DNA of 34,561 nucleotides from Deferribacteres bacterium (GCA_013152795.1 JAADFS010000192.1:1-34561), one strand, 5' to 3'; shown: positions 2,541 to 34,365, numbered from the stretch's first letter. Program-made: numbers and translations. The notes: generated by a model not told the origin, from the letters alone.

Positions 2541-2630
2541 CTGCTCCTCCTGTCTATCATATCCGGAAACAGGGAGACCCCCGCCGCCGTTTCGAAATTT
2601 ATTTTAAGGGCGTATTGCGATACACCCCTG

Positions 2631-3230: not shown

Positions 3231-3233
3231 ACC

Positions 3234-5573: not shown

Positions 5574-5607
5574 ATCTTCACCTTAATTAATATTTAATGT
5601 AATTAAG

Positions 5608-8086: not shown

Positions 8087-8160
8087 ATATCCTCCATAAT
8101 TCGTGAATCGTGTCCGGTCGGCGTGTCCGTAAAAATGCTCAACTCAGACGGACAACCTCT

Positions 8161-10359: not shown

Positions 10360-10406
10360 TTCAACCTCCTAAACGGTAATTATATGTACGGTAATAAATC
10401 TCCTGC

Positions 10407-10835: not shown

Positions 10836-10897
10836 CTTCTCCGGGGGTCGTTTTTCCGGCAGGGATTACCGGTGTGCTCCCGCCTCCGGGAATGACA
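10823..10897. repeat. REP-like inverted repeat element in the fur leader
   Basis: TGTCATTCC (10823-10831) and GGAATGACA (10889-10897) are perfect inverted ends; the right arm reads TCCCGCCTCCGGGAATGAC. Confidence 0.5.
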
Positions 10898-10920
10898 CGT
10901 TCTTAAGTACTCAAATTAGT

Positions 10921-10935
10921 TAATAATAATTATTA
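10921..10935. promoter_or_regulatory. Fur/Per-type 7-1-7 operator
   Basis: Perfect TAATAAT-A-ATTATTA palindrome just downstream of the predicted promoter and upstream of the Fur-family gene. Confidence 0.7.
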
Positions 10936-10954
10936 GTTAATAAAACGTCATAAT

Positions 10955-10983
10955 ATCTTACAGATGTCCGCCCCCCCTGTCAA
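10955..10983 (-). promoter_or_regulatory. Sigma70-type promoter for the fur-acsB-cooS unit
   Basis: Minus strand TTGACA (10983-10978), 17-nt spacer, TAAGAT (10960-10955). Confidence 0.7.
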
Positions 10984-11081
10984 ACAGGCTGCACATAAAT
11001 AAACCCTCCAGGGGCGTAAAAATACCGCCCGCGGGCGGGAGGGAGGGCCTGCAGCGTTCAGGCAACATCAGGCCAGAAAAC

Positions 11082-12422: not shown

Positions 12423-12442
12423 TGTTTACCTCCATATTTTGC

Positions 12443-13384
12443 TCAAACCAGTTCACCGATGGTCTTTTCAACGGTCTCTATCGCCGCAGGATGCCTCATG
12501 ATAAGGAGGTTTGTCCCGGCCAGAAGCATCGCCGTTGCGGTAATCGCCTCCCAGGCAATGCCCCTCTCACGGAGCGCCCCCCATTCAGGAACATCCGCTT
12601 CCGGGGCAACGGTCTCCTTTATCTTCCAGACATACATGCCGACATCCCCGAGTATCGGAGGCTGCATGGTCGGATCATTCTGGGCAAGCGCGGCAAGCCG
12701 TATCCTCTCCATCACTGAATAGGTATACTCCAGGCCGTACCCGAGCGCAGAGCACATCGGGTCTGTAATGAGCTTTTCTTTGCTGAAACCCATCTGGGTT
12801 ATCAGGATGTTCAACTGTTTTGCAAGATTGATGTCAAGCTCCGACATTGCTATCAGTTTATGATTATGCGCGAGGGCCGCGGCCACTATGGTTTTGTAAT
12901 TGCCCTCCTGGGCCTTTCCGATTATGCAGTTGTACCCGCTTGCAGCCTCGGCTGCGGCAACCAGCACCGTGGAGTCCTTTTCAATGTGGTTGGAGCCGAG
13001 TATGACAAGGGGCACATCAACAGCCGCCAGCACATCCTTGACGGTCTTGGCGGCATCCTCGGCAGACCTGTCGTCCCTGTCTGGATGGGTGCTCAGAAGC
13101 CTGAGCGCAATGGCCTTTGCATTCAGGACATCCTGGCAGTGTTTGGCCCATGCAACAGGATCGCCGCTTACATCCTTGTATGCCTCTTTTACTGTATCCG
13201 GCCAGTCATCGGGCGGACAGTCCTGAATCTCATAGGCAATCACGGGCTTGTTGGGCTGTTGTCCTTCAAAGGACAGGAACGGAAGGGTGTTTTCACCGCC
13301 TACTGTAACCGCCCTGTCGTCTTTGCCGAAATCAAAGCTTAGGACTTTACCGGTATATGACTCCTTAGGAATAACGTAAGACAT
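12443..13384 (-). CDS. acsD: Corrinoid iron-sulfur protein small subunit
   Basis: VGGENTLPF, DINLAKQLN, LGYGLEYTYSVMERIRLAAL, MRHP motifs. Confidence 0.96.
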   Translation of the reverse strand: MSYVIPKESYTGKVLSFDFGKDDRAVTVGGENTLPFLSFEGQQPNKPVIAYEIQDCPPDDWPDTVKEAYKDVSGDPVAWAKHCQDVLNAKAIALRLLSTHPDRDDRSAEDAAKTVKDVLAAVDVPLVILGSNHIEKDSTVLVAAAEAASGYNCIIGKAQEGNYKTIVAAALAHNHKLIAMSELDINLAKQLNILITQMGFSKEKLITDPMCSALGYGLEYTYSVMERIRLAALAQNDPTMQPPILGDVGMYVWKIKETVAPEADVPEWGALRERGIAWEAITATAMLLAGTNLLIMRHPAAIETVEKTIGELV

Positions 13385-13442
13385 ATTGACCTCCGTAAAA
13401 AGATTTGCTCAGGAAACAGACGCTGCTGCATTGAGCCTTTCA

Positions 13443-14231
13443 TTACATCTCCAGGTACGAGTGCGCATAAAGTGTATTTCCGAGAAAGATGTCCGTTGTC
13501 TTGAGCACATCCATAAGATCTTTGTCAAGAGGGTTCATGATCGCCGCTGAAAGACCCTCGTACATAAGCAGTGTCAGGTATACCCTGTCTATCAGGCTTC
13601 TCATCTCCTTCGGCACGCCGTTTGATACATTACTCAGCCCCACAACCGTTTTCATCGGGGGGTCATTCAGTTCCTGGAACATCTTCACGGCCTTGATGGC
13701 ATGGATGGCCTGATCCTGCATTGTGCAGACCTGGAGAATCAGCGGATCAAGGAAAAGATCTTCCATCGGCACGCCGTATTCAGCGGCCCTGGCCATAATC
13801 TCGGCGGCTATCCCGCATCTTTCCTCCGCGTCGGCAGGCAGGCTGCCCTTTCCGAGGGTCAGGGCGATACACTGCGCATTGTGTTTCGCCGCCATCTCGA
13901 GCATGACAAACCTGTCCGGCTCATTTGACGTGGAGTTGATAAGGGGCCTTCCCCATTCATTGTTATGCACCTGCAGGCCCGCCTCAAGCGCGGCCGCATT
14001 GGTGGTATCCAGGCACAGGGGGGCCTGCACCACCTGCTGTATGCTCTCGACCATCCACTTCATGAGGTCTTCGCCGTTTTCCTCGGCAGGACCTATATTT
14101 ACGTCTATGAAGTGTGCGCCTGCCTTCCACTGGGCTGCGGCAAGCTCCTGGATGGGTTTGGGGTCGCGGGCATTCATCGCCTCCCTGACCTTTTTCGCTA
14201 TAACGCTGATTTTTTCACCTATAATTATCAT
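13443..14231 (-). CDS. acsE: Methyltetrahydrofolate:corrinoid Fe-S protein methyltransferase
   Basis: Pterin-binding TIM barrel (MIIIGEKI, IDVN, LCLDTT, INS, DPL, GLSNVSNG), 262 aa, adjacent to acsD/acsC. Confidence 0.92.
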   Translation of the reverse strand: MIIIGEKISVIAKKVREAMNARDPKPIQELAAAQWKAGAHFIDVNIGPAEENGEDLMKWMVESIQQVVQAPLCLDTTNAAALEAGLQVHNNEWGRPLINSTSNEPDRFVMLEMAAKHNAQCIALTLGKGSLPADAEERCGIAAEIMARAAEYGVPMEDLFLDPLILQVCTMQDQAIHAIKAVKMFQELNDPPMKTVVGLSNVSNGVPKEMRSLIDRVYLTLLMYEGLSAAIMNPLDKDLMDVLKTTDIFLGNTLYAHSYLEM

Positions 14232-17380: not shown

Positions 17381-19825
17381 ATGAAATCAAGGAATTCATA
17401 TCTGATTCTGGGTGTGCTTATGATCGCCCTGCTGATGCCGTCTTCAGCAGGCGCAGCCTGGCGGACAGGCTGTGTGGATTGTCCGCGTCTTTTTTATCGT
17501 ATAGATATGCGGACGCTGGCGGTGGATTCTTCCGGGAATCCACATATTGTTTACGGTGGAGGGGGCTGGATCGGAGATGGTGTATATTATGCATATTATG
17601 ACGGAGACTCATGGCATATCGAAACAGTGGACGACAGGGGTGGTGGCACTCTCTCCATAGCCATAGACTCCTCGGATAAAGCGCATATCAGCTATGACGG
17701 CAGCGGCGGGTTGAAACATGCAACCAATGCATCCGGCTCGTGGGTGATTGAGACAGTGGACATTGAAGGAGGCGGTCGTCCCTCCATAGCCATAGACTCC
17801 TCGGATAAGATTCATATCAGTTATGGCAGCAGCCCTCTGAAATATGCGACGAATGCATCCGGTTCATGGGTGATTGAGACAGTGGAGGACGTGGGAGCCT
17901 GGTCTAACTCCATAGCGGCAGACTCGTCAGGCAACGTGCATATCACTTATCGTTATTCTACTGCTGATTCAAAAGATTACATCCTCAAATACGCGACGAA
18001 TGCATCCGGCTCATGGGTAACCGAGATTATAGACAGCGACGGAAGGGTAGGTGAGCATCACTCCATAGCTGTCGACTCATCGGATAAAGTGCATATTGCG
18101 TATGATTATTATCTTTATCTGAAATATGCGACGAATGCATCCGGCTCATGGGTAACCGAAATTGTAGACAGCGACGGAAGGGTGGGTGAGAGTAACTCCA
18201 TAGCCGTAGACTCGTCAGACAACGTGCACATCAGTTACGGTGATTATACCAGTTATCCGTATTATCAACTGAAATACGCAACAAATGCCTCAGGTTCATG
18301 GGTCACCGAGATAGTGGACGATAGCGCTGTATTATCGATTTTCTCCAGGACCTCCATAGCCGTAGATTCCTCAGATAATGTGCATATCAGTTACGTCCAT
18401 GACAGTCCTATTCCTACTTATATTTTTCCGAAGTTCTACCTCAGATATGCAACCAATGCATCCGGTTCGTGGGTCACCGAGACAGTGGACAGTGGCAGGA
18501 AAGTCAGCAAGTATAGTTCGGTAGCCATGGATTCAACAGGTAATGCACATATTAGTTATGTCAGCGATGAAGGTCTGATACATATGACCAACAACGTGGG
18601 TTCTTGGATAACCGAGGTTGTGGTCAGTGGGTTGGGAAGCTGGCCCAACTCCATAGCTGTAGACTCGGCAGACAATGTACATATCGGTTATCTCGGTGAT
18701 CAAGGTTTGATACACGTTACAAATGAGCAGGGTTCATGGGCAAGCGAAATTGTGGATACTAATGGAGGCATATCCAACTCCATCGTCATAGACTCCTCGG
18801 ATAAAGTGCATATTAGTTATCTTAGTCATTATGAGGACAAGGCCTATCCAAATGAGTATCTGAAATATGCGACAAATGCATCCGGTTCATGGGTCACTGA
18901 GACCGTATTGGTCGGCGCTGCAGGTGAATACTTTCACAACTCTATAGCCCTGGATTCTTCGGATAAGGTACATATTACTTATCGGGATGCGTACTGGCTG
19001 GTATTGCCAAGTAATATCAACCATGTGACGAATGCATCCGGTTCATGGATCACTGAGGTTGTCGATCGTGATGGAATGGCTCCTTCCATAGCCATAGACT
19101 CCGCAGACAATGTGCATATCAGTTATTTTTATCCTGTTTATTATTCAAGTTACAGATACCTGAAACATGCGACGAATGCATCCGGTTCGTGGGTGAATGA
19201 AGTTGTAGATAACACAGGAAGCCCGTCTTTCATAGCCATAGACTCCGCAGACAATGTGCATATCAGTTATAGCAACGCTCAATCTCTGATGTATATGACA
19301 AATGCATCGGGTTCATGGGTGAGCGAAACGGTGGACAGCGATGCAGGTGAGGTGATCTCCATGGCGATGGATTCAACGGATAAGGTTTACATTGTCTACT
19401 ATGACAGATTTCATTTTGACCTCAAGTATGCAACAAACAAGCCCTTGCCTGACATCTCGGTAACCGACTCGGTCGACCCCGCGGATGACCTCCAGATACC
19501 GTTTGGTGAAGTAAGGGGAGGCAGGTCACCAAGCCGGACAGCAACTGTAACAAATATTGCAGACAGCGGCAGCGAAAACCTTGTGATCAGTGCTGTATAT
19601 CTGACAGGTGCGAATCCGGAACAATTCGAGATATGGAAGGATAATTGTTCTGATACGGCATTAGCATCGTCCGGAAGCTGTACGATACGAGTGGTATTCA
19701 CGCCTGAAGAGGAAGGAGTGTACAGTGCAAGGCTGGGCATAGACAGCAACGACCCCGACACACCTACAGTTTATGTGAAATTAACCGGGACAAGCGTTGC
19801 AAAGCGCAAGCAGGGCCGCAGATAG
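17381..19825 (+). CDS. Secreted 14-repeat beta-propeller protein with C-terminal Ig-like (choice-of-anchor D/ASH-like) domain
   Basis: Signal peptide ending AGA; 14 copies of SIAxDSSDxxHIxY...LKYATNASGSWxxExVD; C-terminal PDISVT..FG.V..VTN..L.I...SCTI.V.F.P..SNDPD; GGAGG SD. Confidence 0.85.
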   Translation: MKSRNSYLILGVLMIALLMPSSAGAAWRTGCVDCPRLFYRIDMRTLAVDSSGNPHIVYGGGGWIGDGVYYAYYDGDSWHIETVDDRGGGTLSIAIDSSDKAHISYDGSGGLKHATNASGSWVIETVDIEGGGRPSIAIDSSDKIHISYGSSPLKYATNASGSWVIETVEDVGAWSNSIAADSSGNVHITYRYSTADSKDYILKYATNASGSWVTEIIDSDGRVGEHHSIAVDSSDKVHIAYDYYLYLKYATNASGSWVTEIVDSDGRVGESNSIAVDSSDNVHISYGDYTSYPYYQLKYATNASGSWVTEIVDDSAVLSIFSRTSIAVDSSDNVHISYVHDSPIPTYIFPKFYLRYATNASGSWVTETVDSGRKVSKYSSVAMDSTGNAHISYVSDEGLIHMTNNVGSWITEVVVSGLGSWPNSIAVDSADNVHIGYLGDQGLIHVTNEQGSWASEIVDTNGGISNSIVIDSSDKVHISYLSHYEDKAYPNEYLKYATNASGSWVTETVLVGAAGEYFHNSIALDSSDKVHITYRDAYWLVLPSNINHVTNASGSWITEVVDRDGMAPSIAIDSADNVHISYFYPVYYSSYRYLKHATNASGSWVNEVVDNTGSPSFIAIDSADNVHISYSNAQSLMYMTNASGSWVSETVDSDAGEVISMAMDSTDKVYIVYYDRFHFDLKYATNKPLPDISVTDSVDPADDLQIPFGEVRGGRSPSRTATVTNIADSGSENLVISAVYLTGANPEQFEIWKDNCSDTALASSGSCTIRVVFTPEEEGVYSARLGIDSNDPDTPTVYVKLTGTSVAKRKQGRR

Positions 19826-19842
19826 CCCTGAGAGAGATCTGC

Positions 19843-19881
19843 GGGGATTGCAAAGCCGGAAGATCCGGCTTTACAATCCCC
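19843..19881. terminator. 18-bp stem hairpin (terminator or REP-like) between the two paralogues
   Basis: GGGGATTGCAAAGCCGGA-AGA-TCCGGCTTTACAATCCCC, one mismatch; only a weak U-tract. Confidence 0.6.
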
Positions 19882-19960
19882 ATTTATAACCGTAAAAAGT
19901 ATTTCTCAGCTTTTTCTTTCCGAGGGGGTAAATATTAATGCAATAAAGGGGGAGGCTGTC

Positions 19961-22377
19961 ATGAAATCAAGAAATTCATATTTGATTCCGGGCGTTCTCA
20001 TAATCGCCCTGCTGTTGCCCTATTCAGCACTTGCCGGCTGGCGGACGGGGTGTGTGGATTGTCCACGTTATTTCGATGGTATGAATTCCAGGTCACTGGC
20101 GCTGGATTCTTCGGGGAATCCCCATATTGTTTATGGAAGTAGAGACGGTGTATATTATGCCTGGTATGACGGAGTTTCCTGGCATACTGAGACAGTGAAC
20201 ATCGATGGAGGCATATTTGCCTCCATAGCCATAGCCATAGACTCGTCAGATAAGGTACATATTATTTATTATGACGGTTATCCAAATAGGGCCCTGAAAT
20301 ACGCCACGAATGCCTCCGGCTCATGGGTGTCTGAAGTTGTGGACAGCGACGGAGGCTGGGCTACCTCCATAGCCATAGACTCATCAGATAAGGTGCATAT
20401 CAGTTATTCCTATTATCGTGGTTATCCGGACTACATCAATGCCCTGAAGTATGCGACGAATGCCTCCGGCTCATGGGTGTCTGAAGTTGTGGACAGCGAC
20501 GGAGGCTGGGCTACCTCCATAGCCATAGACTCATCAGATAAGGTGATATCAGTTATAATGTTAGTTATCCAAATTATGACCTGAAATATGCAACAAATGC
20601 CTCCGGCTCATGGGCGACTGAGATTGTGGACAGCGGTGAGGGCTGGGCTACCTCCATAGCCATAGACTCATCAGATAAGGTGCATATCAGTTATAATGTT
20701 GATTATCCAAATTATGACCTGAAATATGCAACAAACGCCTCAGGCTCATGGGTGTCTGAGATTGTGGACAGCAGAAGCATGTATCCCTCCATAGCCATAG
20801 ACTCATCGGATAAGGCGCATATCAGTTATTATAACCATTCGGATTACGACCTGAAATATGCCACGAATGCCTCCGGCTTATGGGTGACCGAGATTGTGGA
20901 CGATAAAGCAAGTTTAAAAGGAGACAATGGTAACTCCTCCATAGCGGTGGATTCATCAGATAATGTGCATATCAGTTATCTGTTCGCTCATATCGGTTAT
21001 ACGTCTGATTATGAATATGGCTTTACTGACCTCAAGTATGCAGTGAATTCATCCGGTTCATGGGTAATCGAGACAGTAGACAGCGGCAGAAAAGCCAGCG
21101 ATGGTTCAGTAGCAATAGATTCGTCAGATATGCTGCATATCAGTTATGTAACCGATCAGGGTTTGATGTACATGACGAATGCCTCAGGCTCATGGGTGAC
21201 TGAGATTGTGGACAGCGGCGGAAGCTGGGCTCCTTATATAGCCATAGACTCCTCAGATAAGGCGCATATCAGTTATGATAGTTATCCCTTCGAGAGGGGT
21301 GTAAAATATGCCACGAATGCCTCCGGTTCATGGGTAACTGAGATTATGGACAGCAAGAGCAAAGCCGATGTTACTTCCATAGCCATAGACTCATCGGATA
21401 AGGTGCATATTAGTTATTATAGCTATGATCCGGATTACGCCCTGAAATATACAACGAATGCCTCAGGCTTATGGGTGACTGAGATTGTGGACAGCAAAAG
21501 CAAATCTGCGGTTCCTTCTATAGCCATAGACTCCTCAGATAAGGCGCATATTAGTTATAACAGCAATTATCCGGATTTCGACCTGAAATACGCCACGAAT
21601 GCTTCGGGCTCATGGGTGTCTGAGATTGTGGACAGCTATGTGGACATTTTTTCCTCCATAGCCATAGACTCCTCAGATAAGGCACATATTAGTTATAACA
21701 GCAATTATCCGGATTCCAGCCTGAAATACGCCACTAATGCTTCGGGCTCATGGGTGTCTGAGATTGTGGACAGCGACGGAGGCTGGTCTAACTTCATAGC
21801 CATAGACTCCTCAGATAAGGCGCATATTAGTTATATCTCCCGTAGCAGTTTGAAATACGCTACGAATGCCTCCGGCTCATGGGAGGTTGAAACAGTGGTG
21901 AATCAAGGCAGGCCTAACTCCATAGCCATGGATTCATCAGACAATGTTTATATTATTTATTATGATATAGAGCATTATGACCTCAGGTATGCAACCAACA
22001 AGCCCTTACCGGAAATCTCGGCGACCGACTCGGTCGATCCCGCCGGTGACCTCCTGATACCGTTTGGTGAAGTAAGGGGAGGCAGGCCGTCAAGACAGAC
22101 AGCCACTGTAACAAATACCGGAGACGCAGACCTTGTAATCAGCGAGGTATATTTGACAGGCGCGGATCCGGAACAATTCGATATACGAAAGGACACCTGT
22201 TCAAATATGCCTGTAGCGCCCTCCGGAAGCTGCACGATAGATGTGGTATTCACTCCTCAAGAGGCAGGTGTGTACAGTGCAAGGCTGGGCATAGACAGCA
22301 ACGACCTCGACACACCGGAGCTTTATGTAAAGTTAACCGGGACAGGTATTGCAATGCGCATGAAAAGCCGCAAATAG
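19961..22377 (+). pseudogene. Paralogous 14-repeat beta-propeller/Ig-like secreted protein, frameshifted
   Basis: ORFs 19961-20584 and 20626-22377 join if one C is restored between 20545 and 20546 (aaggtg-atatc versus aaggtgcatatc in neighbouring repeats). Signal peptide and C-terminal domain are closely similar to the upstream gene. Could be a sequencing error. Confidence 0.8.
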
Positions 22378-22464: not shown

Positions 22465-23365
22465 TCAGTACGGGTATCCCACCGATCTGAAAATCTCCCT
22501 GCACTCTTTCTCCTTTTCAACATCCGGTCTTATGCCGTTCAGTGCGGCGGGCGCATCCTTTCCGAGGGATTGTCTTTTTGCAATCCCCCCTGAATTATAG
22601 GGCAGCAGTTCATAATATGCGCAGCCTGTGTTTTTAATGAAAGAGGCGATACCGGTGAGATTCTCCGCCGTTGCCGTAATACCGGGGACAAGGGGTACTC
22701 TCGGGATGACCTGAATGTCCCGTGCCTGAACCAGGCTCGTGAAATTCTCCAGTATCGCATCATTCACTCTGCCCGTATATTTCTCATGCTCATGCCGGTC
22801 AATAAACTTGATGTCGTAATATATGAGGTCAACATAGGGCAGAATGCCTGTCCTGAATCCGGTGGATCCCGGATGTCTGGATTGCAATGTGAATATTGTT
22901 TTTCTTCAGTTCTTCCATTACCGGCTGAAGGTAACGGGTATAAAGCGCCGGCTCCCCACCTGAGAAAGTCACACCGCCGTTTGAGGTCTCATAAAAGACG
23001 CGGTCTCTCAAGAGTATCTCCACGAGTTCGCCGGCAAGATAATATCCGCCTATCAGCTCCACGGCCCCCGCAGGACAGATGTCCGCGCATCTGCCGCATG
23101 CAGTGCATTGCTCCCTGTTTATCCTCTGCATGTCATGCATACTGACCGCACCTTCGCTGCATACCCTCCGGCAGTCTCCGCACAGTATGCACCTGTCAGG
23201 ATAAAAGGCGACCTCGGCGGCAGGGTCCATGGATTCAGGATTGTGGCACCAGATGCACGAAAGAGGGCATCCCTTGAGAAAAACGGTGGTCCTTATGCCC
23301 GGGCCGTCATCAAGGGCAAAGCGGCGTATATTGAATATCAACGGCTGTTTTTGTTTCCTGCTCAT
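22465..23365 (-). pseudogene. Glycyl-radical enzyme activating protein (radical SAM), frameshifted
   Basis: DGPGIRTTVFLKGCPLSCIWCHNPE, two ferredoxin motifs and GGVTFSGGEP in ORF 22829-23365. The C-terminal half (DLIYYDIK..H..YTG..N..IL.N, RVPLVPG, LLPYN) is in another frame. Break near 22860-22875. Confidence 0.85.
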
Positions 23366-23823
23366 ACACTCCCTGTTGCCATCAACTGGAGACGCTTTGC
23401 CATATAGGCGAATTTGTACAGATAGTTGAGATTGCCGCGGGGCGTTACATCCTGCCTGAGCATTGAGCCGAGGATATCGGGTTTGGGTGAAATGAGATAG
23501 TTCAGGAGCACCCTGCCGTTTCTGAACTCTATCGTGATATCGGGATTATCTATTAATCTCTCGGAGACCCTCATCCTGTTGTCTCTGAAAACCGCTGAAA
23601 CGGTTATGCTCCCGTCCCTGCTCTTGAAGAGATACCTTCCGTTGAATCCCTCTATATTCCGCCTGAAGTCCCCGTAGTTTACAAGGAAGACAAGGCTCAT
23701 GAGTTTTAACAGTGTCTCCAGGAACTCCTCGGCGAACTCGGACTCCATGCACCTGAGCCATTTCTTCATCAGCCATCTGGCCCTGAGTTTCCGGAAAAGT
23801 ATGAAGTTCAGAAAATCTTCCAT
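23362..23823 (-). CDS. SCP2 sterol/lipid-binding-like protein
   Basis: F..NIEGFNGRYLF, F....M.V.....PDITIEF, D....L...V...GNLNYLYKF pattern resembles the SCP2 fold; lies between the GRE and its activase, with an ATGA overlap to the activase. Confidence 0.6.
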   Translation of the reverse strand: MEDFLNFILFRKLRARWLMKKWLRCMESEFAEEFLETLLKLMSLVFLVNYGDFRRNIEGFNGRYLFKSRDGSITVSAVFRDNRMRVSERLIDNPDITIEFRNGRVLLNYLISPKPDILGSMLRQDVTPRGNLNYLYKFAYMAKRLQLMATGSV

Positions 23824-23838
23824 CCATTGCCTCCTTCT

Positions 23839-26319
23839 CTACTCATACGGCAGCATTGATTTATGCGCCTCGGGAAACGGGTTTGCCTTGCCGGTCCTTA
23901 TGTCGTATTCGGTCCTGGTGATGATCTCTTCCTTCATCGCCTCGTTCAGGGCATTGAAGTATGCCGAATATCCCGATACCCTTACGAGAAGCTCCGGATA
24001 TTTATCCGGATTATTCCTGGCATCAAGAAGGGTTTCGTAAGACATGATATTAAACTGCACATGAAGGCCCCCGCTCCTGAAATACGCCTCCACAGCCGAG
24101 GCGAATCTCTCGAGGTCCTCCTCACCTGAAACAGACGGATATTTCAGGTTGAGGGCCTCTCCCATGGGGATGCAGAGACCGTCAAGGCCGCCCACTGTCC
24201 TGAGGCACGCGGCCAGGTCCCGGGCGGCCTGCGATACAGGGGTGATGCCGCTGGCGAATACCTCATAAGCCCTTCTGCCGTTGGGAAGCGCGCCGGAGAG
24301 CTTTCCCTGGCCTGCATGATTGGTCGTTGTCCAGTAAGCCGGCCTGTATTTGCCTCCGCGGTAGTTTGTATGGCCCTGGTAGAAATCATACAGGAAGCGT
24401 ATGAGGTTCTGCGAGTTCTTCACTGCAACAGGGTCTTCAGTGCCGTATTTGGGGGTCCTGTTGACAAGGTATGCATGCAGCTTTTCATGCCCGTTGAAGT
24501 TCGCCTTCAGGGCCTGGATGAGTTCGGCGAATGTGCATTTCCCCTCAATGAAGACCGCCTTCTCTATTGCATTGAGTGAATCAACGGTGTCGGCAAACCC
24601 GATATGGGTCGCGCCCGAGGCATTATACAGCGCGCCTCCGAATATAAGGTCCTTCCCCTTTTCCATAGGCCCCTCGAAAAAGGCCGAAAGCAGGGGCGTG
24701 GGATATATCTCCTGGTGCACGAGGCCGAAGTATTCGTTTAATTCAATGGCCTTGCCCATGAGCCAGGAAGCCTGTTTCTTGAATGCCTCCCAGAACTCTT
24801 CAAAGCTCCTGAACTCCTCGGGGTCGCCGGTCACAGGCCCTATCTGTTCATCACCGACAACGGGTCTTTTGCCGTTGTAGAGGGCCAGCTCAAGCGCCGA
24901 GACAAGATTGAACATGATGGAGCTTGAGGCATCATAGCTCTTGCCGGGGATGCCCATCTCCACGCAGCCGATTATACCGTAGTCCCGCGCATGTTCTGTC
25001 TTCACACCCTGGTTTTCAAGTGTCACAATGTCAACCACGTCATTATGAAATGCCGGCACGGCCCTTGTGTTCACTATAACCTCCGCGACCCTGTCGCGGT
25101 ACTCCCTGGTATTTTTCTCATAATGATACCTCGCGTTCATACTGGGGTCCCTGAGTTTGAGAAGCTCCGTCACCCTGAGTATGATATAGGTCAATTCATT
25201 GACCGCATCTTCACCGTTTTCGTCCACCCCGCCTACCGTAACCGCCGGGACGGTACCCGCTCCGCCCCAGAGTTCTTCAGCGGTCTCGGGCACGAGATTG
25301 GTGTTGTCGTTGAGCTTCAGCCAGAGACAGCTCATTATTTCAACGGCCTCTCTGTCGGTCAGGGTCCCGTTGTCAATATCATTCCTGTAGTATTTATAGA
25401 GCACCTGGTCGAGCCTCCCCGGGCTCATGGCCATATTGATGCTTTCGGCGTGGATGCCCACCTGTATAATCCACAGGGAATTGACGGCCTCGCGGAATGT
25501 GCCCGCAGGTTTTGCAGGCACCCTTGCGCATATTTCGGACATTGTCCGGAAATTCTGTTTCCTGAACGGGTCGTCCGTCTCTGCTGCAAGCTCAGCGGCC
25601 CTTCTGCTCAGGTTCCGTGCGTATGCAATAATTCCCTGAAGCGCTATTTGGACAGCCTGGTAAAACTCAAGCTTCTGTTTGTTTTCACCGGTGATATTCC
25701 CGCTCTCCCGGATATGCCTTTCCCTTGAGGCTGCCTCTTCAATGATGAATTCCAGCCCCCTGTCCAGTGCAACCTCGTATCCGGGAATGGTATGGGATAT
25801 GGTGCCGGCCTTGCCTGCTATGAAAAAGACGAACTTTTCAAAGAGGCCCATGCACTCGGGATTGTTATATTTTTTCCTGGTGTATTCAATAATGTTCCGC
25901 TCCATCCAGTAGGGGTAAATCTCGAAGTTCAGCTCATCGGCATCTTCAGGCGACAGCTTCAGCGGATTCTTCTTCCTGTCACTGATGGTATCCAGCTCGG
26001 GCCATATGGTCATCCCTGTATACTCCGGGTACACGGGTGCACCGAAGGCCTTTGAAGTGGTCGTGCCTGCAAGCAGGTTATCATCGAAAAAGAGCGGTTC
26101 CTTGTTGGAAAGGAAATAATTGACCGCCTTTGCATAACGGATTTCCGCGGGCTCCTCATCAGTGGACATATTCTTCAGATAATGTGTTAAATGCCTCGCG
26201 CGTTCAATACAGACCTCGGGCCTTATTTTGATCTGTGATTCCCTCAGCCTCCTTATCAGGTCCAGGTTGTCAAGCGAATACTCCCTGAGCCGGATATCTT
26301 TTAAACGAATGGACGACAT
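23839..26319 (-). CDS. Glycyl radical enzyme (PFL superfamily, not canonical PflB), substrate unknown
   Basis: 826 aa; SPGRLDQ, TVGGVD..G.DAVNELTY, single-Cys loop IIGCVE, LPNGR, QFNI, Gly loop LLVRVSGYSAYF; AAGGAGG SD. Confidence 0.93.
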   Translation of the reverse strand: MSSIRLKDIRLREYSLDNLDLIRRLRESQIKIRPEVCIERARHLTHYLKNMSTDEEPAEIRYAKAVNYFLSNKEPLFFDDNLLAGTTTSKAFGAPVYPEYTGMTIWPELDTISDRKKNPLKLSPEDADELNFEIYPYWMERNIIEYTRKKYNNPECMGLFEKFVFFIAGKAGTISHTIPGYEVALDRGLEFIIEEAASRERHIRESGNITGENKQKLEFYQAVQIALQGIIAYARNLSRRAAELAAETDDPFRKQNFRTMSEICARVPAKPAGTFREAVNSLWIIQVGIHAESINMAMSPGRLDQVLYKYYRNDIDNGTLTDREAVEIMSCLWLKLNDNTNLVPETAEELWGGAGTVPAVTVGGVDENGEDAVNELTYIILRVTELLKLRDPSMNARYHYEKNTREYRDRVAEVIVNTRAVPAFHNDVVDIVTLENQGVKTEHARDYGIIGCVEMGIPGKSYDASSSIMFNLVSALELALYNGKRPVVGDEQIGPVTGDPEEFRSFEEFWEAFKKQASWLMGKAIELNEYFGLVHQEIYPTPLLSAFFEGPMEKGKDLIFGGALYNASGATHIGFADTVDSLNAIEKAVFIEGKCTFAELIQALKANFNGHEKLHAYLVNRTPKYGTEDPVAVKNSQNLIRFLYDFYQGHTNYRGGKYRPAYWTTTNHAGQGKLSGALPNGRRAYEVFASGITPVSQAARDLAACLRTVGGLDGLCIPMGEALNLKYPSVSGEEDLERFASAVEAYFRSGGLHVQFNIMSYETLLDARNNPDKYPELLVRVSGYSAYFNALNEAMKEEIITRTEYDIRTGKANPFPEAHKSMLPYE

Positions 26320-26412: not shown

Positions 26413-26820
26413 TTAAATTGGATACAAAGCAACATTGAGTCTGTTGAAATGTTTCCTGTTGAAAGTCACTACACCTTCAGCATTAAGCTTTTTCGACAGG
26501 ACAGAGATATACGCATCTGCAAACTCTACCGGGTGCATTTTGTAAACCTCTAATGACTCTGTAATAATGTCAATATCGGAAACATCAAGTCCGGGAATAC
26601 CCGCGATGCTTAAAAGGCAGTTGTATATTTCACTCTTTTTCATTTCATAAAATGATTTCAATGTCCATGCAAGCTCAAAAAACACGGGCGGTCCCGTCAC
26701 AAGACGTATCTTCCCTTTTTCCGCCCTGTCCAGAAGTTTTTCAACCCTGTCCGCATGTTCAGGTTCGTCGTTGACAAGATAACGGATGAAGACATTTGTA
26801 TCAACAAAGTATTTCTTCAT
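26413..26820 (-). CDS. vapC: PIN-domain toxin (VapC-like)
   Basis: FVDTNVFIRYL, FELAW, FADAYI, VTFNRKHF PIN signature; overlaps the antitoxin stop. Confidence 0.88.
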   Translation of the reverse strand: MKKYFVDTNVFIRYLVNDEPEHADRVEKLLDRAEKGKIRLVTGPPVFFELAWTLKSFYEMKKSEIYNCLLSIAGIPGLDVSDIDIITESLEVYKMHPVEFADAYISVLSKKLNAEGVVTFNRKHFNRLNVALYPI

Positions 26821-27053
26821 TTATCCTTTCCCGTCACATGTTTTGAAACAGCCGCCTGCATTGCCCTGCGGGCAGAACCTTTTTTCGCGGGGATACTGCC
26901 CCTTAACTTTCTGAAAGAGGGAACCGATTTCAAAATAATTTCTCCATCCCTCATAATAATCTCAACCTTGTCTCTGGGTTTTATGTCAAGCTTATTCCTT
27001 ATGTAGGAAGGAAGCGTTATCTGCCCCTTTGATGAAACTGTAGCAAATCCCAT
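26817..27053 (-). CDS. AbrB/MazE/SpoVT-family antitoxin
   Basis: ATVSSKGQITLPSYIRNKLDIKPRDKVEI; AAGGAGG SD; upstream of the PIN gene. Confidence 0.9.
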   Translation of the reverse strand: MGFATVSSKGQITLPSYIRNKLDIKPRDKVEIIMRDGEIILKSVPSFRKLRGSIPAKKGSARRAMQAAVSKHVTGKDK

Positions 27054-27075
27054 CAAATTCCTCCTTTTCCTTTTT

Positions 27076-27137: not shown

Positions 27138-28154
27138 TCACAGGACATGAAGGTTCACGCCCATTTTCCTGAACAGTTTATCAAGATGGCCCATTGCGAA
27201 TCTCTGATGCTCTTTTACCGCTTCCTGGAACCGGAACCAGTCCGTCTTTTCCCTGTTCACTCCATCCCTCCAGTAAAGCCTGTCACGAAGCATTGTAAAC
27301 ATTGAGAGCAATCCGCTGTCGGAATCCCTCAGTCCACGCACTTCGGTTTCTATGGCATCGTTAAACCAGTCGGCTTCGTCAAACTCCCCCAGCCATGGGG
27401 CGATTTCCTTGTAGCGGCTGATGCGCTCTTCGGTATACCACTTGCTGTCGCCGGAAAATGACGGGCCCATGGCCCTGATCAGCCAACTGCGCAAATCATC
27501 CCATCCGGCATTGGCATTTATGTTAATGCCCTGAAGGTAACTGCGGTATTTGCCGTAAATCTTCTCCGCAGCATCAATGTAACGCTCTGTATTGTCAATC
27601 TCGTCATTAACAAGGCGGCAGTCTTCCCACCTGTGGGCAGGCCAGTCTGGATGGTGTTCGGCATCGGCATGGCCGATATCGGGCTTCGGGTCCATCCCTA
27701 TATTGTTGAAGTAGTCATACCAGCCCACGAAGTTCTGATGCGCCCATGTGTCCGCGTAAGCGTGTGTCGCAATGCCTATCCGGTAGAGCCTCGTATCTTC
27801 CGGGGCCCTGAACGCCTCGTCCATCATGCTGCTGGCTGTCTCATTGCCGGGGGTAGTGTTTAACAGATGCATCTTGCCGTCAGTGCGGCAGGCCCTCTCG
27901 TCCGCAGGGTCGCCGGGGACGAAATGAAACACGGGATATATCCTCATCAACTTTCTTTTCGGCTTGAGAATATTCATTGTCTGTGAGATATAGTTTTCAT
28001 ACGGTTTTCCGCCCGAGCGGTCTTCGATCTTGAGGCATACATCGTTTTCATCAACGTACTCCGAGGCCGTTGCAATGGTTTTGGCCTCGGCCTCACTGAA
28101 ACCAGCGGCCCTGGCGATTATCCCCGTCATGTAATAATGAAATTCAGTATCCAT
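27138..28154 (-). CDS. Conserved hypothetical protein (DUF6765-like; His/Asp pattern reminiscent of Zn-dependent phospholipase C/nuclease fold)
   Basis: M...FHYY....AR.AGF, YVD, FHFVP, GIATHAYADTWAHQNF, IGHADA; AAGGAGG SD. Family name is from recall, not a search. Confidence 0.55.
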   Translation of the reverse strand: MDTEFHYYMTGIIARAAGFSEAEAKTIATASEYVDENDVCLKIEDRSGGKPYENYISQTMNILKPKRKLMRIYPVFHFVPGDPADERACRTDGKMHLLNTTPGNETASSMMDEAFRAPEDTRLYRIGIATHAYADTWAHQNFVGWYDYFNNIGMDPKPDIGHADAEHHPDWPAHRWEDCRLVNDEIDNTERYIDAAEKIYGKYRSYLQGININANAGWDDLRSWLIRAMGPSFSGDSKWYTEERISRYKEIAPWLGEFDEADWFNDAIETEVRGLRDSDSGLLSMFTMLRDRLYWRDGVNREKTDWFRFQEAVKEHQRFAMGHLDKLFRKMGVNLHVL

Positions 28155-28366: not shown

Positions 28367-30235
28367 TCACCGGTCGGTGTCAAAGCCGATAAACTCCCTG
28401 ACCGCATACCAGTCGTCATCCATCAGCATAAAGTATCCGAAATTTTCATACTTATAGACAGCCGGGTCTTTTGCGGGATCATACGGTATCCCGGGTTTCG
28501 TCGAATAAAGGAGCTGCCCCAGGTACAGGCCGTCGGCTATCCTGACCAGCTCGTCTATGCAGAGGTTGTCCGGGGGCATGGTGTGTAATTCCGGCCACCG
28601 GTAGTTGAACTGCAGCACCTCCCTGCCGCCGTTTTCGGGGTTGATGGATCTGCTGTTGGCTGCAATGAAGTAAAAACTCTTGACATAAATGTCATCGCTT
28701 TTTTCCTTTTCATCCGGATATTCCACAATCATCCCCGTTCTGTCCAGTAGTTCTATAAACGCAGTAACCGGCAGGGAAAGCCCGAGGTCCTTCCTGTATG
28801 TATTGGCCCCGATGATAACGGGATTCATCCCCTCATAATACCGCGCGCTGTCTCCGATATACTTCCTTATCCCGTCTACGGATGAAGGTGTAAAGGTCTT
28901 GCCCGTCCACGGTGAAAACGGCCTGACGGCAGGGTATATGTCATTCAGCACGGTCCTGTCGAACTTTTTCAGGAAACCGCCGTTGTTGAAAGAGACGACA
29001 CCTCCGTGCAGGAAACCGCTGATGCCGCGGGGCGACTCTCCGCATTTAAACACCTCGAGAAGCCTGGCAAAGTACCGTTCCTTGTACCCCGGCCCTTTCT
29101 GTATCCCGTCGTAGATATCCCGCAGGTAATGGAGTATGGTCTCCCTGTCCCCCATATCCTCGGCAATTGCCCTGCACTCGGGAGAATCCCTGAACGTGAA
29201 TGTCCTGAATTTGCCGGAGAGGTCTTGGGACAAACTGTACGCAATTTCGGGAAAGAGCCTGTTCTTTTCACCAAGCCACGTGTCGTCCATGAGAAGGAAA
29301 TACCCGAAATTCCGGTACTTGTAATCCTTTACCGGCACGTCGGGGTCATAATCTTTAAACAGATATTTCAGGGAAGTTGCATAATAGAGCTTCCCGAGGT
29401 AGAGGCCCTTGGATATCTCAACTATTTCATCAATGAGGAGCCTGTTGGGAAAGACATTACCAAGGTTTTTCCAGCGGTAATTCAGGGCCAGCACCTCTTT
29501 TCCAGGATGGGCCGTGTCTACAGACATGGCTTTCCGCGCGAGAAAGAGGCCTCCCCTGGCATGTATCCATGAACGTTGCCTCTTGTCCGCGCCGGGCACT
29601 GCCTCCATATCTATAACGGCAGACAGCACATAGTTTGAAAGATTGTTGACAACTCCATTCTTTTCTTTGCGGAAAGAGTTTATCCCCAGATACACGGTAT
29701 CTCCTCCGGGGACGGCACCGCCGGTGAATTTCTTTACCTTCTCAGGCCCTATCTTCCTAAAATCCTTTCCTGCCCACGGTGATGTATCGGACAGCAGCCT
29801 GCCGTAAAGCACCTGAAGCATGTCAACCTCTCTGCCTATGCCGAGCCTCTGCCGGGTCTTCTCAAGGAAGGTGTAAACATCGGTTCCCGTCTTAAGGCTT
29901 ATGGTGATGCCGTGGTAGAATCCGTCAACTTCCCCGGGTGTCCTGCCGCAGAGGAAGAGCCGGTCGAGCTTGCCGGCGATTTCCCCGTGCGAGGTGCCTT
30001 TATTGAGGATGTCCGTATAGTAGCGCATCAGTTCCAGCGGGTTGTTCCTGCCCTTCATGTCCTTCTGCATTATCTCCATAAACAGGGGGTCTTCCCTGTC
30101 GCACGTATCCGCAAGGGTGAAATCCCGGGACACGCCGGGCCCGGCCGGAATGTCCCCGCCTCCCCGGCCCTCTTTTTTTATGCACGAGTAGAGAAAAAAC
30201 ACTGATAATACCACGCAGATGACTTTTATCCTCAT
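28367..30235 (-). CDS. Putative lipoprotein with two tandem copies of an uncharacterised domain
   Basis: Start moved to ATG 30235 (MRIKVICVVLSVFFLYSC, lipobox-like). Motifs F.CG..P, SPW.GK.F, EVL..NYRW, IDE.V.I..GLYLG and YKY.NFGYF.LMDD.W each occur twice. Confidence 0.7.
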   Translation of the reverse strand: MRIKVICVVLSVFFLYSCIKKEGRGGGDIPAGPGVSRDFTLADTCDREDPLFMEIMQKDMKGRNNPLELMRYYTDILNKGTSHGEIAGKLDRLFLCGRTPGEVDGFYHGITISLKTGTDVYTFLEKTRQRLGIGREVDMLQVLYGRLLSDTSPWAGKDFRKIGPEKVKKFTGGAVPGGDTVYLGINSFRKEKNGVVNNLSNYVLSAVIDMEAVPGADKRQRSWIHARGGLFLARKAMSVDTAHPGKEVLALNYRWKNLGNVFPNRLLIDEIVEISKGLYLGKLYYATSLKYLFKDYDPDVPVKDYKYRNFGYFLLMDDTWLGEKNRLFPEIAYSLSQDLSGKFRTFTFRDSPECRAIAEDMGDRETILHYLRDIYDGIQKGPGYKERYFARLLEVFKCGESPRGISGFLHGGVVSFNNGGFLKKFDRTVLNDIYPAVRPFSPWTGKTFTPSSVDGIRKYIGDSARYYEGMNPVIIGANTYRKDLGLSLPVTAFIELLDRTGMIVEYPDEKEKSDDIYVKSFYFIAANSRSINPENGGREVLQFNYRWPELHTMPPDNLCIDELVRIADGLYLGQLLYSTKPGIPYDPAKDPAVYKYENFGYFMLMDDDWYAVREFIGFDTDR

Positions 30236-31666: not shown

Positions 31667-32459
31667 ATGATGCGTTTCTTTGAAAAGCTGGGTGCCGATG
31701 TCCTGTATCAGGTCAACCAGATCGGCAGGATGGGCATATTTCTCTTTTATTCCGCCATCAGCATAGTAATGCCGCCGTACAAGGTATTCCCTGTCGTCAA
31801 GCAGATATACCATATAGGCGCGCGTTCAGTGTTTGTCATTCTATTCACCGGTGTCTTTACCGGCATGGTCCTGGGGCTTCAGGGGTACAACACCCTCAGC
31901 AAGTTCGGTGCAGAGGGGCTCCTGGGGACTGCCGTGGCCCTAAGCCTTATCAGGGAGTTGGGCCCTGTCATGGCGGCGCTTATGGTAACGGGCAGGGCAG
32001 GCTCCGCCATATGCGCCGAGATAGGCATCATGCGCATCTCCGAACAGATCGACGGACGCCCTGGAGTGCATGGCTATTGATCCGCACAAGTATGTCGTAG
32101 CCCCCAAGTTCATAGCGGGAATCGTCTCCCTTCCACTGCTGACCGCTCTTTTTAACGTGATCGGAATCCTGGGGGGATATGTGGTTGGGGTAGGCCTCCT
32201 CGGAATCAATGAAGGGGCATATTTTTCAAGTATGTACAACGACGTGGAGTTCGGAGATATTTATATGGGATTTGTCAAATCCCTCTGCTTCGGGGTTCTG
32301 ATTATATGGATATGCTCTTCAAAGGGGTATTTTGTCCACTTGACAAAAGGCGGGGGGTTTGGAGCCGAAGGCGTAAGCAGTGTCACCACCAATGCGGTGG
32401 TCATGTCATCAGTCTGCATACTGTTATTCGATTATTTCCTGACATCGGTGCTTTTATGA
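31667..32459 (+). pseudogene. mlaE: MlaE lipid-asymmetry ABC permease, frameshifted by a 4-bp duplication
   Basis: RELGPVMAALMVTGRAGSAICAEIGIMRISEQID continues as ALECMAIDP if one GACG of GACGGACG (32051-32058) is removed; the C-terminal half has GAEGVSSVTTNAVV. Confidence 0.88.
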
Positions 32460-33232
32460 GTGAAAAACCGGTTGTACAGCTTATAGACGTAAAAAAATCA
32501 TACGGCTCGCAGCAGGTCTTAAAGGGAGTGAACCTGTCGATAATGGAGGGGAAGACAACCGTTATCGTCGGCGGAAGCGGCCAGGGCAAGAGCCAGATCA
32601 TCAAGCATATCCTCGGCCTGGTCAGGCCTGACAGCGGCAAAGTGCTTGTCTACGGAAAGGACATAAGCAGGGCCGGCAAAAGGGAACTCCGGGCGATCAG
32701 GGCCAATTTCGGCGTCCTCTTTCAGAATGCGGCGCTCTTTGATTCAATGACCGTGTATGACAATGTGGCGCTTCCCCTCAGGGAACGGACAAGGCTGTCC
32801 GAGGCTGAGATAAAAAAAATCGTGGACAGAAACCTGGCGCTTATGGACATCATCGGCAGCGACGACAAGTATCCCGCACAGATCAGCGGCGGCATGAGAA
32901 AAAGGGTCGGTCTCGCGCGTGCGCTCGTGCTGGAACCGCGGATAATCTTTTTTGATGAACCCACGACAGGGCTTGACGTCGCAAAGAGCAACGAGATATA
33001 CCGCGTATTCTTCCGCACACAGACCCAGTTGAAATACACCGCCGTTATCGTCAGCCACGATGTGCCGAAGATATTCAAACTGGCCGATTACGTGGCATTG
33101 CTTCATAACGGCGTTATTCACAGTTGTATTACTCCCGAAGAGTTCCAGCTTTCTGACGACCCCGTGATCAGGGAATTTGTCGAGACCACCATGGGTCAGC
33201 TTTATTCAAGTGAAATGGAGGGTGAATTATGA
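32456..33232 (+). CDS. mlaF: MlaF ABC ATPase
   Basis: Start ATG 32456 overlapping the mlaE stop; GGSGQGKS, LFQNAALFDSMTV, ISGGMRKRVGLARAL, FFDEPTTGLD, VSHD. Confidence 0.92.
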   Translation: MSEKPVVQLIDVKKSYGSQQVLKGVNLSIMEGKTTVIVGGSGQGKSQIIKHILGLVRPDSGKVLVYGKDISRAGKRELRAIRANFGVLFQNAALFDSMTVYDNVALPLRERTRLSEAEIKKIVDRNLALMDIIGSDDKYPAQISGGMRKRVGLARALVLEPRIIFFDEPTTGLDVAKSNEIYRVFFRTQTQLKYTAVIVSHDVPKIFKLADYVALLHNGVIHSCITPEEFQLSDDPVIREFVETTMGQLYSSEMEGEL

Positions 33233-33669
33233 AAAAGATAAACATTGAGACCGCGGTAGGGATTTTTATAATCCTCGGCCTGCTCAGCCTTGGATACCTT
33301 TCTGTGAAACTGGGCGATGTCAGCCTGTTCGGGACGAAACAGTATACGGTAAGGGCCCGCTTTGCGAACGTATCCGGACTGAAGAAGGGAGCCGCCGTAG
33401 AAATTGCAGGGGTCAGGGTGGGAAAGGTCGCGGACATCAGGCTTGAGGACTATGAGGCCGACGTGGAACTTCTGATCGACCCGGATGTAAAACTGCAGGA
33501 GGACGCAATAGCCTCCATAAGGACACAGGGTATAATCGGCGATAAATACATCAAGATCAAGACAGGCGGCGCAGATGAGTATATCGGGGATAACGGGGAG
33601 ATCCTGGAGACCGAATCCGCGATTGAGCTGGAGGAACTCATAAGCAAATATATCTTCGAGAAAGAGTAG
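33229..33669 (+). CDS. mlaD: MlaD MCE-domain protein
   Basis: ETAVGIF TM, F.NVSGLKKGAAVEIAGVRVGKV, ASIRTQGIIGDKYI, LEELISKYIF. Confidence 0.93.
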   Translation: MKKINIETAVGIFIILGLLSLGYLSVKLGDVSLFGTKQYTVRARFANVSGLKKGAAVEIAGVRVGKVADIRLEDYEADVELLIDPDVKLQEDAIASIRTQGIIGDKYIKIKTGGADEYIGDNGEILETESAIELEELISKYIFEKE

Positions 33670-33735: not shown

Positions 33736-34365
33736 ATGATGAAAAGGACACTGCAAATCATAATTATAACGGCACTGGCCCTGGGTATGTCCGGAATAAG
33801 CGCGGCGGAAAATACACCTATAGAGGCGATAAGATCGACAGTTGACGCCGTCCTTGATATAATGAAAGATAAAGAACTTGCTGCACCCGGCAGGAGAGCG
33901 GAACGGCGGGAGAAGATACGGGCGCTGATCAGGGACCGTTTTGATTTCAGGGAGATGTCGAGACGCTCACTCGCCAGGCACTGGAAGAAACTAAGCCCTG
34001 AAGAGGAAAGAGAGTTCGTAGCCGTTTTTTCCGACTTGCTGGAGTCCTCGTATATAGGGAAAATCGAGGCATACACGGATGAAAAAGTCACCTATGACAA
34101 GGAAACCATCAGGGGCAAGGGTAAATACGGGATAGTCAATACAACAATTGTCACAAAGAATGTCGATATCCCGATTGACTACAAGCTTATTTTCAGGAAC
34201 GGAAAATGGTGGATTTACGATGTCGTCATCGAAGGGGTGAGCTTTATCAGTACCTACAGGAGCCAGTACAACAAGATCATAGTTAAACAATCTTTTGCAA
34301 AACTCCTCGAACGGATGAAGAGCAAGCTGAAAGAAATAAAGGCCATGGAAGCGAAAGAGGCTTAA
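33736..34365 (+). CDS. mlaC: MlaC/Ttg2D periplasmic phospholipid-binding protein
   Basis: Signal peptide, FDFREMSRRSLARHW, WWIYDVVIEGVSFISTYRSQY. Confidence 0.92.
   Translation: MMKRTLQIIIITALALGMSGISAAENTPIEAIRSTVDAVLDIMKDKELAAPGRRAERREKIRALIRDRFDFREMSRRSLARHWKKLSPEEEREFVAVFSDLLESSYIGKIEAYTDEKVTYDKETIRGKGKYGIVNTTIVTKNVDIPIDYKLIFRNGKWWIYDVVIEGVSFISTYRSQYNKIIVKQSFAKLLERMKSKLKEIKAMEAKEA

Follow-up and report, generated by a model that had tools for sequence, protein, structure and literature searches.

A conserved locus pairing an eliminase-type glycyl radical enzyme with a predicted SCP2-fold partner in a Deferribacteres bacterium

Why a glycyl radical enzyme (GRE), which is sensitive to oxygen, should be encoded next to a small protein shaped like a lipid carrier is the question raised by a 34,561-nucleotide stretch of DNA from a Deferribacteres bacterium (GCA_013152795.1, JAADFS010000192.1:1-34561), referred to below as the window. 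Between positions 22,465 and 26,319 it carries a GRE gene, a gene for a protein of 153 amino acids (aa) and a GRE activase gene. A prediction made from the sequence of the window (the original prediction) saw in this operon a new GRE class acting on a hydrophobic or lipid-linked substrate delivered by the 153-aa protein, which was described as SCP2-like. Our analyses lead us to regard it as probable that the GRE and the 153-aa protein are one enzyme, in which the catalytic subunit belongs to the C-O-cleaving 1,2-eliminases (or isomerases) and an SCP2-fold subunit is docked on the N-terminal helical region of the GRE. The reading draws on the modelled fold of the small protein, its conserved pairing with the GRE, natural fusions of the two, retained catalytic residues and the predicted docking; the type of reaction and the lipid nature of the substrate are what we infer.

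The three genes are tightly packed on the minus strand in the order originally proposed, with all parts in place (Table 1). The start of the 153-aa gene lies 15 nt past the GRE stop codon and has a purine-rich stretch containing GGAGG just before it, and the stop codon of the same gene overlaps the activase start by 4 nt. When one genome per species was scanned, 130 relatives of the small protein were obtained, from which the best 80 loci were kept. In 75 of these loci the GRE gene immediately precedes the small gene; the other five comprise four that are truncated by a contig end and one in which the GRE lies downstream of the small gene. An activase follows in 72/80 loci. Such an arrangement of GRE, small gene and activase is far beyond chance. 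The small-protein family itself counts 655 relatives at E<=1e-3, of which the 120 best are 59-94% identical, and forms 355 clusters at 50% identity in an exhaustive search. Its hosts are sediment and subsurface metagenome-assembled genomes (MAGs) labelled Desulfobacterota, Nitrospirota, Acidobacteriota and other phyla.

As the original prediction held, neither microcompartment genes nor small Cys-rich subunits accompany these genes. The bacterial microcompartment shell domain PF00936 was not found in the genome from which the window comes (2.77 Mb in 324 contigs, 85% complete), nor is it among the conserved neighbours of the GRE. The operon consists of the GRE, the SCP2-fold gene with its one Cys and the activase, and contains no Cys-rich small gene.

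Modelling gives the small protein an SCP2 fold, an alpha/beta arrangement in which helices flank five strands. With the AlphaFold model (predicted local distance difference test, pLDDT, 81; predicted template modelling score, pTM, 0.74; alignment of 34 sequences), Foldseek returned 28 PDB matches at E<=1e-3, and all of the matches listed are SCP2 folds. Alkylsulfatase SCP2-like domains match best (2yhe, E 9.8e-6), followed by AF1534, UbiJ-SCP2 and classical sterol carrier proteins. Weak, sub-threshold matches to the Pfam SCP2 family were obtained with 12/34 relatives of the small protein, the best at E 0.0079. A partner shaped like a lipid carrier suggests a fatty substrate for the enzyme.

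Two longer or rearranged relatives were observed within the family. P0123 (766 aa, from a MAG labelled Anaerohalosphaeraceae) has an N-terminal copy of the SCP2-like domain together with pentapeptide repeats and hydrophobic stretches, and P0142 (517 aa) looks chimeric, with a DUF6765 end joined to a shortened GRE and an SCP2 part, and may be a misassembly or a decayed locus.

Co-occurrence or fusion with SCP2, which the original prediction had proposed to look for, is seen in both forms. Besides the adjacency in most loci, 18 of the 20 longer database relatives of the small protein are GRE-SCP2 fusions of approximately 970-1020 aa in which the SCP2 part is C-terminal. In the fusion labelled Thiovibrio sp. 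JS02, residues 2-824 correspond to the GRE (64% identity) and residues 851-983 to the small protein (55% identity). Among the 75 loci, the GRE and the small gene are fused in frame in 3 and are separate genes in 70. Natural fusions of this kind, the Thiovibrio one included, are single-chain expression constructs.

When the GRE and the small protein were modelled together, the predicted complex scored 0.88, compared with 0.00 for the best of three controls. The mark used for this score was reached by 116/157 solved complexes and by 2/215 mismatched pairs, counts that are only a rough guide here because custom unpaired alignments were used. The model runs share at least 80% of their contacts, and the pLDDT of the partner is at least 68. 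No GRE-SCP2 complex is found among the solved structures matching either protein, and the high score is therefore unlikely to reflect a complex already known to the prediction model. In the predicted interface, the C-terminal helix region of the small protein faces GRE residues 103-111, 131-164, 346-350, 487-489 and 670-674. On the side of the small protein the interface is more conserved than the remainder, with 15/24 residues at least 90% conserved versus 39/129 elsewhere. Because of the fusions and the complex model we read the small protein as a docked subunit and not as a free carrier, so that the substrate would not be "delivered by" it in the sense originally proposed.

The catalytic subunit retains the residues expected of an eliminase. 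Pfam places the PFL-like domain at residues 22-671 (E 2.4e-172) and the Gly_radical domain at 689-789 (E 6e-19). The GCVE Cys loop and the RVSGY motif named in the original prediction were recovered, and, as it stated, adjacent Cys-Cys occurs nowhere in the protein. Residues C452, V453, E454, His176 and G783 are each kept in 33/33 aligned family members. In the alignment with glycerol dehydratase (1r8w), Cys452, Glu454 and His176 fall on Cys433, Glu435 and His164, and His176 is aligned with the His of HypD and of 2f3o as well. A 2026 review describes the CXE motif as the mark of GRE eliminases and isomerases, and assigns to Glu435 of glycerol dehydratase the deprotonation of the substrate hydroxyl and to His164 the protonation of the leaving hydroxyl (PMC13450708). 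The GRE shares 58-93% identity with its counterparts in 32 related loci. One GRE among the related loci, from a MAG labelled Nitrospirae (L077:3493-5940), has an internal stop codon.

Class placement was judged by curated hidden Markov model (HMM) cut-offs, standing in for a tree or similarity network. The GRE falls under every NCBIfam equivalog and subfamily cut-off, with scores against cut-offs of 594/678 bits for PFL2-3, 473/1100 for HypD, 472/1000 for HpsG, 446/1050 for CutC and 422/1000 for HpfG. Against solved structures it scores 439 bits with 2f3o (the best), 413 with 1r8w, 407 with HpyG (8id1), 404 with CutC and 397 with HypD (6vxc); benzylsuccinate and methylalkylsuccinate synthases give only 220-222 bits, versus 390-440 for the solved eliminases. 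Judged by these cut-offs, the GRE lies outside every characterised class, as the original prediction had it. The term "new GRE class" is nevertheless overstated, because C-O-cleaving 1,2-eliminases have a CXE motif and a His that the GRE retains (PMC13450708). The GRE is better called a new clade with a new subunit architecture inside the C-O-cleaving 1,2-eliminase mechanistic class.

The active site was compared with that of glycerol dehydratase. H281, S282, Y339, D447, Y640 and S642 of the latter, which we take to be the lining of its glycerol pocket, align with M296, A297, V357, S466, W663 and residue 665 of the GRE, the last being Met in 30/33 family members and Thr in 3/33, including the window's protein. 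With this pocket lining, the pocket of the GRE would be less polar, since these positions are replaced by mostly hydrophobic residues.

From the positions of these residues a reaction can be proposed. The activase would install the radical on Gly783, from where it would move to Cys452, and the resulting thiyl radical would abstract a hydrogen from the carbinol carbon of the substrate. Glu454 would then deprotonate the hydroxyl on that carbon, and His176 would protonate the leaving group on the neighbouring carbon, with loss of water, alcohol or carboxylate and formation of an aldehyde or ketone. The SCP2 module may meanwhile grip the hydrophobic tail of an amphiphilic substrate, so that its hydroxylated head enters the active site, much as the SCP2-like domain of alkylsulfatases works and as UbiJ works for ubiquinone intermediates.

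Several known systems resemble parts of this one. The B12-independent glycerol dehydratase of Clostridium butyricum (1R8W/1R9D), propanediol dehydratase and HypD have in common with the GRE the PFL-like fold and glycyl radical domain, and likewise the Cys, Glu and His positions and a two-cluster activase. The GRE differs in falling below every curated subfamily cut-off and in the positions taken to line the pocket of glycerol dehydratase, where its residues are mostly hydrophobic. Furthermore, an SCP2-fold subunit is not known from any characterised eliminase, and neither microcompartment nor aldehyde-processing genes are conserved near the GRE. The best solved match, PFL2/PflD of A. fulgidus (2F3O), aligns over residues 33-803 at 439 bits, shares the GCVE loop and has its His in an ISH motif. 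It is nonetheless a distant relative, hardly closer than glycerol dehydratase, and like the GRE here it has no characterised function (PMC13450708). The SCP2-like protein AF1534 comes from this organism too, and was met only among the fold matches of the small protein.

The subunits of benzylsuccinate synthase, methylalkylsuccinate synthase and 4-hydroxyphenylacetate decarboxylase are likewise small, encoded beside the GRE and bound to the catalytic subunit, and some of them, in enzymes with hydrophobic substrates, cover the substrate channel (PMC13450708). However, these are Cys-rich HiPIP-like or rubredoxin-like iron proteins, whereas the subunit here has a predicted SCP2 fold and a single Cys. 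The review lists as GRE small subunits only the HiPIP-like and rubredoxin-like ones, in three GREs, with no mention of SCP2 or sterol, and describes characterised GREs as acting on small polar molecules or hydrocarbons with iron proteins as helper subunits (PMC13450708). The best structural matches of the small protein are the C-terminal SCP2-like domain of alkylsulfatases (Pisa1, 2YHE; SdsA1, 2CFU) and the SCP2 domain of UbiJ (6H6P), at E 1e-5 to 1e-4, with 11-15% identity in the structural alignments and no detectable sequence relation. These modules are attached to, or work with, enzymes that handle long hydrophobic chains, in the case of UbiJ ubiquinone intermediates. The partner enzyme is a radical enzyme here and a metallo-beta-lactamase-fold sulfatase or ubiquinone pathway enzyme there; by analogy, the small protein most likely works as those modules do.

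Literature searches on glycyl radical enzymes together with sterol carrier proteins (SCP2) or ether lipids found no paper on a GRE-SCP2 pairing, and a paper on benzene activation mentions glycyl radicals only in passing (PMC13101534). We class the system as a clade of eliminase-type GREs whose accessory subunit is of a new type. A helper subunit with a lipid-carrier fold would extend anaerobic radical chemistry to lipids or other amphiphiles as substrates, in a family that is large and widespread (the 355 clusters above).

Several results weigh against a lipid-handling enzyme of two subunits. The window's small protein has zero Pfam or NCBIfam matches even at E<=10, PF02036 included, so that its SCP2 likeness is invisible to HMMs; the "SCP2-like" of the original prediction stands for the modelled fold and finds no HMM match for the window's own protein. 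Neither of the outcomes that would have refuted that prediction was seen: the GRE reaches no characterised class by the curated cut-offs, and the small protein has the modelled SCP2 fold and is conserved beside the GRE. The fold alone points to lipid binding. On the GRE side the interface is not clearly more conserved, with 18/35 residues versus 320/791, and the complex is a predicted model from unpaired alignments. In addition, clustering of the neighbourhoods revealed no conserved aldehyde-processing gene near the GRE. Operons of characterised dehydratases usually include such a gene.

It would be conceivable that the SCP2-fold protein is a structural or regulatory small subunit only, serving solubility or gating either the glycyl radical domain or the substrate channel, like the gamma and beta subunits in benzylsuccinate synthase, with no lipid bound and a small polar substrate. 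Known GRE small subunits do serve solubility and gating and not substrate carriage (PMC13450708), and a complex model and fusions speak for association and not for ligand binding, in a protein that has no SCP2 HMM match. We still think this rather unlikely, given the exclusively SCP2 folds among the matches listed at E<=1e-3, headed by enzyme-attached domains of alkylsulfatases, enzymes that act on long alkyl chains, the replacement of glycerol-pocket positions by Met, Ala, Val and Trp in the GRE family, and conserved neighbours that include a lipoprotein and a possibly phospholipase-like protein (see below). The opposite possibility, that the small protein is a free, diffusible carrier shuttling substrate to the GRE and not a fixed subunit, would agree with the soluble lipid-transfer role of classical SCP2 proteins and with the separate genes of most loci (70/75). 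Recurrent in-frame fusions (18/20 longer matches and 3/75 loci), a complex model that passes against its controls and the location of the most conserved part of the small protein at the predicted interface make it quite improbable.

The GRE might also be similar to an X-succinate synthase and join fumarate to an alkane that the SCP2 protein supplies, as has been argued for the A. fulgidus enzyme. A HiPIP-like or rubredoxin-like Cys-rich subunit accompanies all known succinate synthases and the operon has none, while the invariant CXE motif and His are as in eliminases and isomerases (PMC13450708); the benzylsuccinate and methylalkylsuccinate synthases moreover score approximately 220 bits against 390-440 for the eliminases. 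What speaks for an alkane-adding enzyme is that the best solved relative is A. fulgidus PFL2 (2f3o, 439 bits), the function of which is debated between dehydratase and alkylsuccinate synthase (PMC13450708), and that relatives occur in MAGs labelled Smithella and Syntrophus. We hold it to be very improbable.

Table 1. Positions of the GRE operon, of its motifs and of the adjacent conserved genes in the window
Feature	Position	Strand	Evidence
Glycyl radical enzyme, 826 aa, PFL2/eliminase type	23839..26319	-	PF02901 + PF01228
His176, position of glycerol dehydratase His164	25792..25794	-	alignment to 1r8w
Cys loop G451-C452-V453-E454 (CXE motif)	24958..24969	-	aligned family + glycerol dehydratase
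Glycyl radical motif R780-V-S-G783-Y784	23968..23982	-	sequence + family alignment
153-aa SCP2-fold partner (modelled), one Cys, predicted to dock on GRE	23362..23823	-	model fold, pairing, fusions
GRE activase, N-terminal part, radical SAM CX3CX2C + two-cluster ferredoxin insert	22866..23365	-	TIGR02494, Fer4
GRE activase, C-terminal part, other frame	22465..22865	-	TIGR02494
8-base deletion splitting the activase	22865..22866	.	comparison with relatives and public contig
DUF6765 protein, 338 aa, possible zinc phosphodiesterase	27138..28154	-	PF20551, E 4.6e-68
Lipoprotein, approximately 620 aa, internally duplicated domain	28367..30235	-	signal peptide, lipobox-like Cys

The third gene of the operon is broken. 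An activase with a ferredoxin insert had been predicted, and the gene indeed has the radical SAM CX3CX2C motif (C33, C37, C40), Fer4 matches in the insert and an N-terminal half that passes TIGR02494 by itself (206 bits against a cut-off of 174, profile positions 1-165). The C-terminal half covers profile positions 171-291 at 74 bits, and the two halves are in different frames and appear as separate matches in the genome search. In a contig from a public run (X1) that is approximately 99% identical in this region, position 22865 is followed by 8 additional bases. The 8 bases missing from the window are present at that spot in relatives L001, L002 and L003 also, and restoring them brings both halves into one frame. 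The original prediction had spoken of a "repaired activase", which implied the broken gene seen here. A second public run (X2) covers only 24007-24300, outside the activase.

The window's genome yielded no second GRE activase scoring above the cut-off of the family. As the sole GRE activase found carries the 8-base deletion, the GRE system is probably inactive in this genome unless the break is an assembly error. MlaE in the same window is also split in two frames, near 32060-32070, by an apparent 4-base tandem duplication, and because of this second frameshift the activase break could be an assembly fault, a point that counts against reading the locus as inactivated. Either real small indels in the population or assembly faults would account for the breaks.

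Two further genes, absent from the original prediction, lie just upstream of the GRE in the window and encode a DUF6765 protein and a lipoprotein. Within 6 kb, a homologue of the DUF6765 gene is present in 49 of the 80 loci and of the lipoprotein gene in 40, with either in 56 and both in 33; across loci they are placed upstream of the GRE or downstream of the activase. The lipoprotein has no Pfam or NCBIfam match, and both of its halves match the same DNA in locus L001. In the ESM Atlas it falls in unnamed clusters only (0.89-0.90), and the DUF6765 protein in DUF6765 clusters only. No paper was found in a literature search for DUF6765.

Across 25 sequences, the DUF6765 family has eight invariant residues, five His and three Asp (H6, D35, H77, H131, D135, H139, H162, D170). 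With the model of the window's protein (pLDDT 80.5, pTM 0.87), the top five of 48,161 chains in a VIA search are zinc phospholipase C and S1-P1 nuclease folds (Z 6.3 for 1olp, 5.8 for 1ah7, 5.7 for 8cqm, 5.2 for 8qjl and 4.2 for 3w52), and the next match, at 3.3, is unrelated. A VIA Z under 8 can reflect a common helical arrangement. Sequence methods gave no such match, as PF00882 does not match the protein and a DUF6765 profile found nothing better than E 0.14 among PDB sequences. In four Smithella loci without DUF6765, a gene upstream of the GRE has a weak Zn_dep_PLPC match (E 1.8e-5, just below cut-off). These four count as one event because they belong to one lineage. The DUF6765 protein, the lipoprotein and the Zn_dep_PLPC-like gene of Smithella together are a context that fits a lipid substrate.

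Other results on the neighbours pull in the opposite direction. Neither gene occurs within 6 kb in 24/80 loci. The modelled resemblance to zinc phospholipase C is weak, Z 6.3 at best, and suggestive only; Foldseek with the same model gave no match at E<=1e-3 (best E 0.88), and hhalign of DUF6765 against the phospholipase C-like gene of Smithella was not significant (E 0.21). Of 201 Nitrospirota genomes, 7 carry the small gene, 11 carry DUF6765 and 3 carry both. Two of these three (G038 and G081) have both genes on one contig, and in the third, the window's genome, both are on the window contig. The link to DUF6765 is facultative and not obligate.

A strict linkage of DUF6765 to the small gene was considered and rejected, as DUF6765 occurs without the small gene in 8/201 Nitrospirota genomes. 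The DUF6765 neighbours in loci L014-L073 are of two subtypes, one window-like and 39-91% identical to the window's protein and a second at 23-27%, in which 13/13 aligned members share a short terminal motif with a Cys near the C-terminus. Both subtypes are found in tandem in L034 and L023.

A concrete and testable idea of the pathway comes from the two neighbours that recur, the lipoprotein and the possibly phospholipase-like DUF6765 protein. The lipoprotein, the phospholipase C-like DUF6765 protein, the GRE, the SCP2 subunit and the activase might together be an oxygen-free radical route for dismantling glycerol-based membrane lipids, a conjecture that we put forward as an unlikely one. The zinc enzyme would remove the phosphate head group and expose a glycerol hydroxyl, the SCP2 subunit would hold the chains, and the GRE would abstract the carbinol hydrogen and expel the neighbouring O-alkyl or O-acyl group; the role of the lipoprotein is left open. 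If true, the route would cleave ether bonds that are beyond the reach of hydrolases and would explain how ether and archaeal lipids can be broken down anaerobically in sediments. It would also be the first case of a GRE with a lipid substrate and of one with an accessory subunit that is not an iron protein.

A few minor features were noted around these genes. Between DUF6765 and the GRE, on the minus strand, the window has an AbrB/SpoVT-like antitoxin gene (26817-27056) and a PIN-domain toxin gene (26413-26820), a pair that looks like a recent insertion because no homologue occurs in any of the 80 loci. A papain-family (Peptidase_C1) gene lies within 6 kb of the GRE cluster in 8/80 loci (L020, L028, L032, L033, L055, L056, L062, L071). 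A riboswitch that could name the ligand was sought with Rfam in the window and nine loci, and the only match was to CRISPR-DR16. This match, at 28056-28102 on the plus strand with 38.7 bits versus a cut-off of 35, is inside the DUF6765 coding region on the opposite strand and may be due to chance.

The rest of the window holds genes of several other systems. A Wood-Ljungdahl block on the minus strand (525-14231) encodes the CODH/ACS subunits CdhC and two CdhD, a prismane-type CODH, a pterin-binding methyltransferase, and NADH-dehydrogenase-like and molybdopterin oxidoreductase genes. ParA, ParB and a cyclic-nucleotide-binding regulator are encoded elsewhere in the window. Convergent with the activase gene, three large proteins are encoded on the plus strand at 17381-22377, with short beta-propeller-like repeats and ending in choice-of-anchor D or Ig-like domains. 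Near the end of the window, a plus-strand Mla lipid-transport operon comprises MlaE (31667-32459), MlaF (32306-33232), MlaD (33229-33669) and MlaC (33736-34365).

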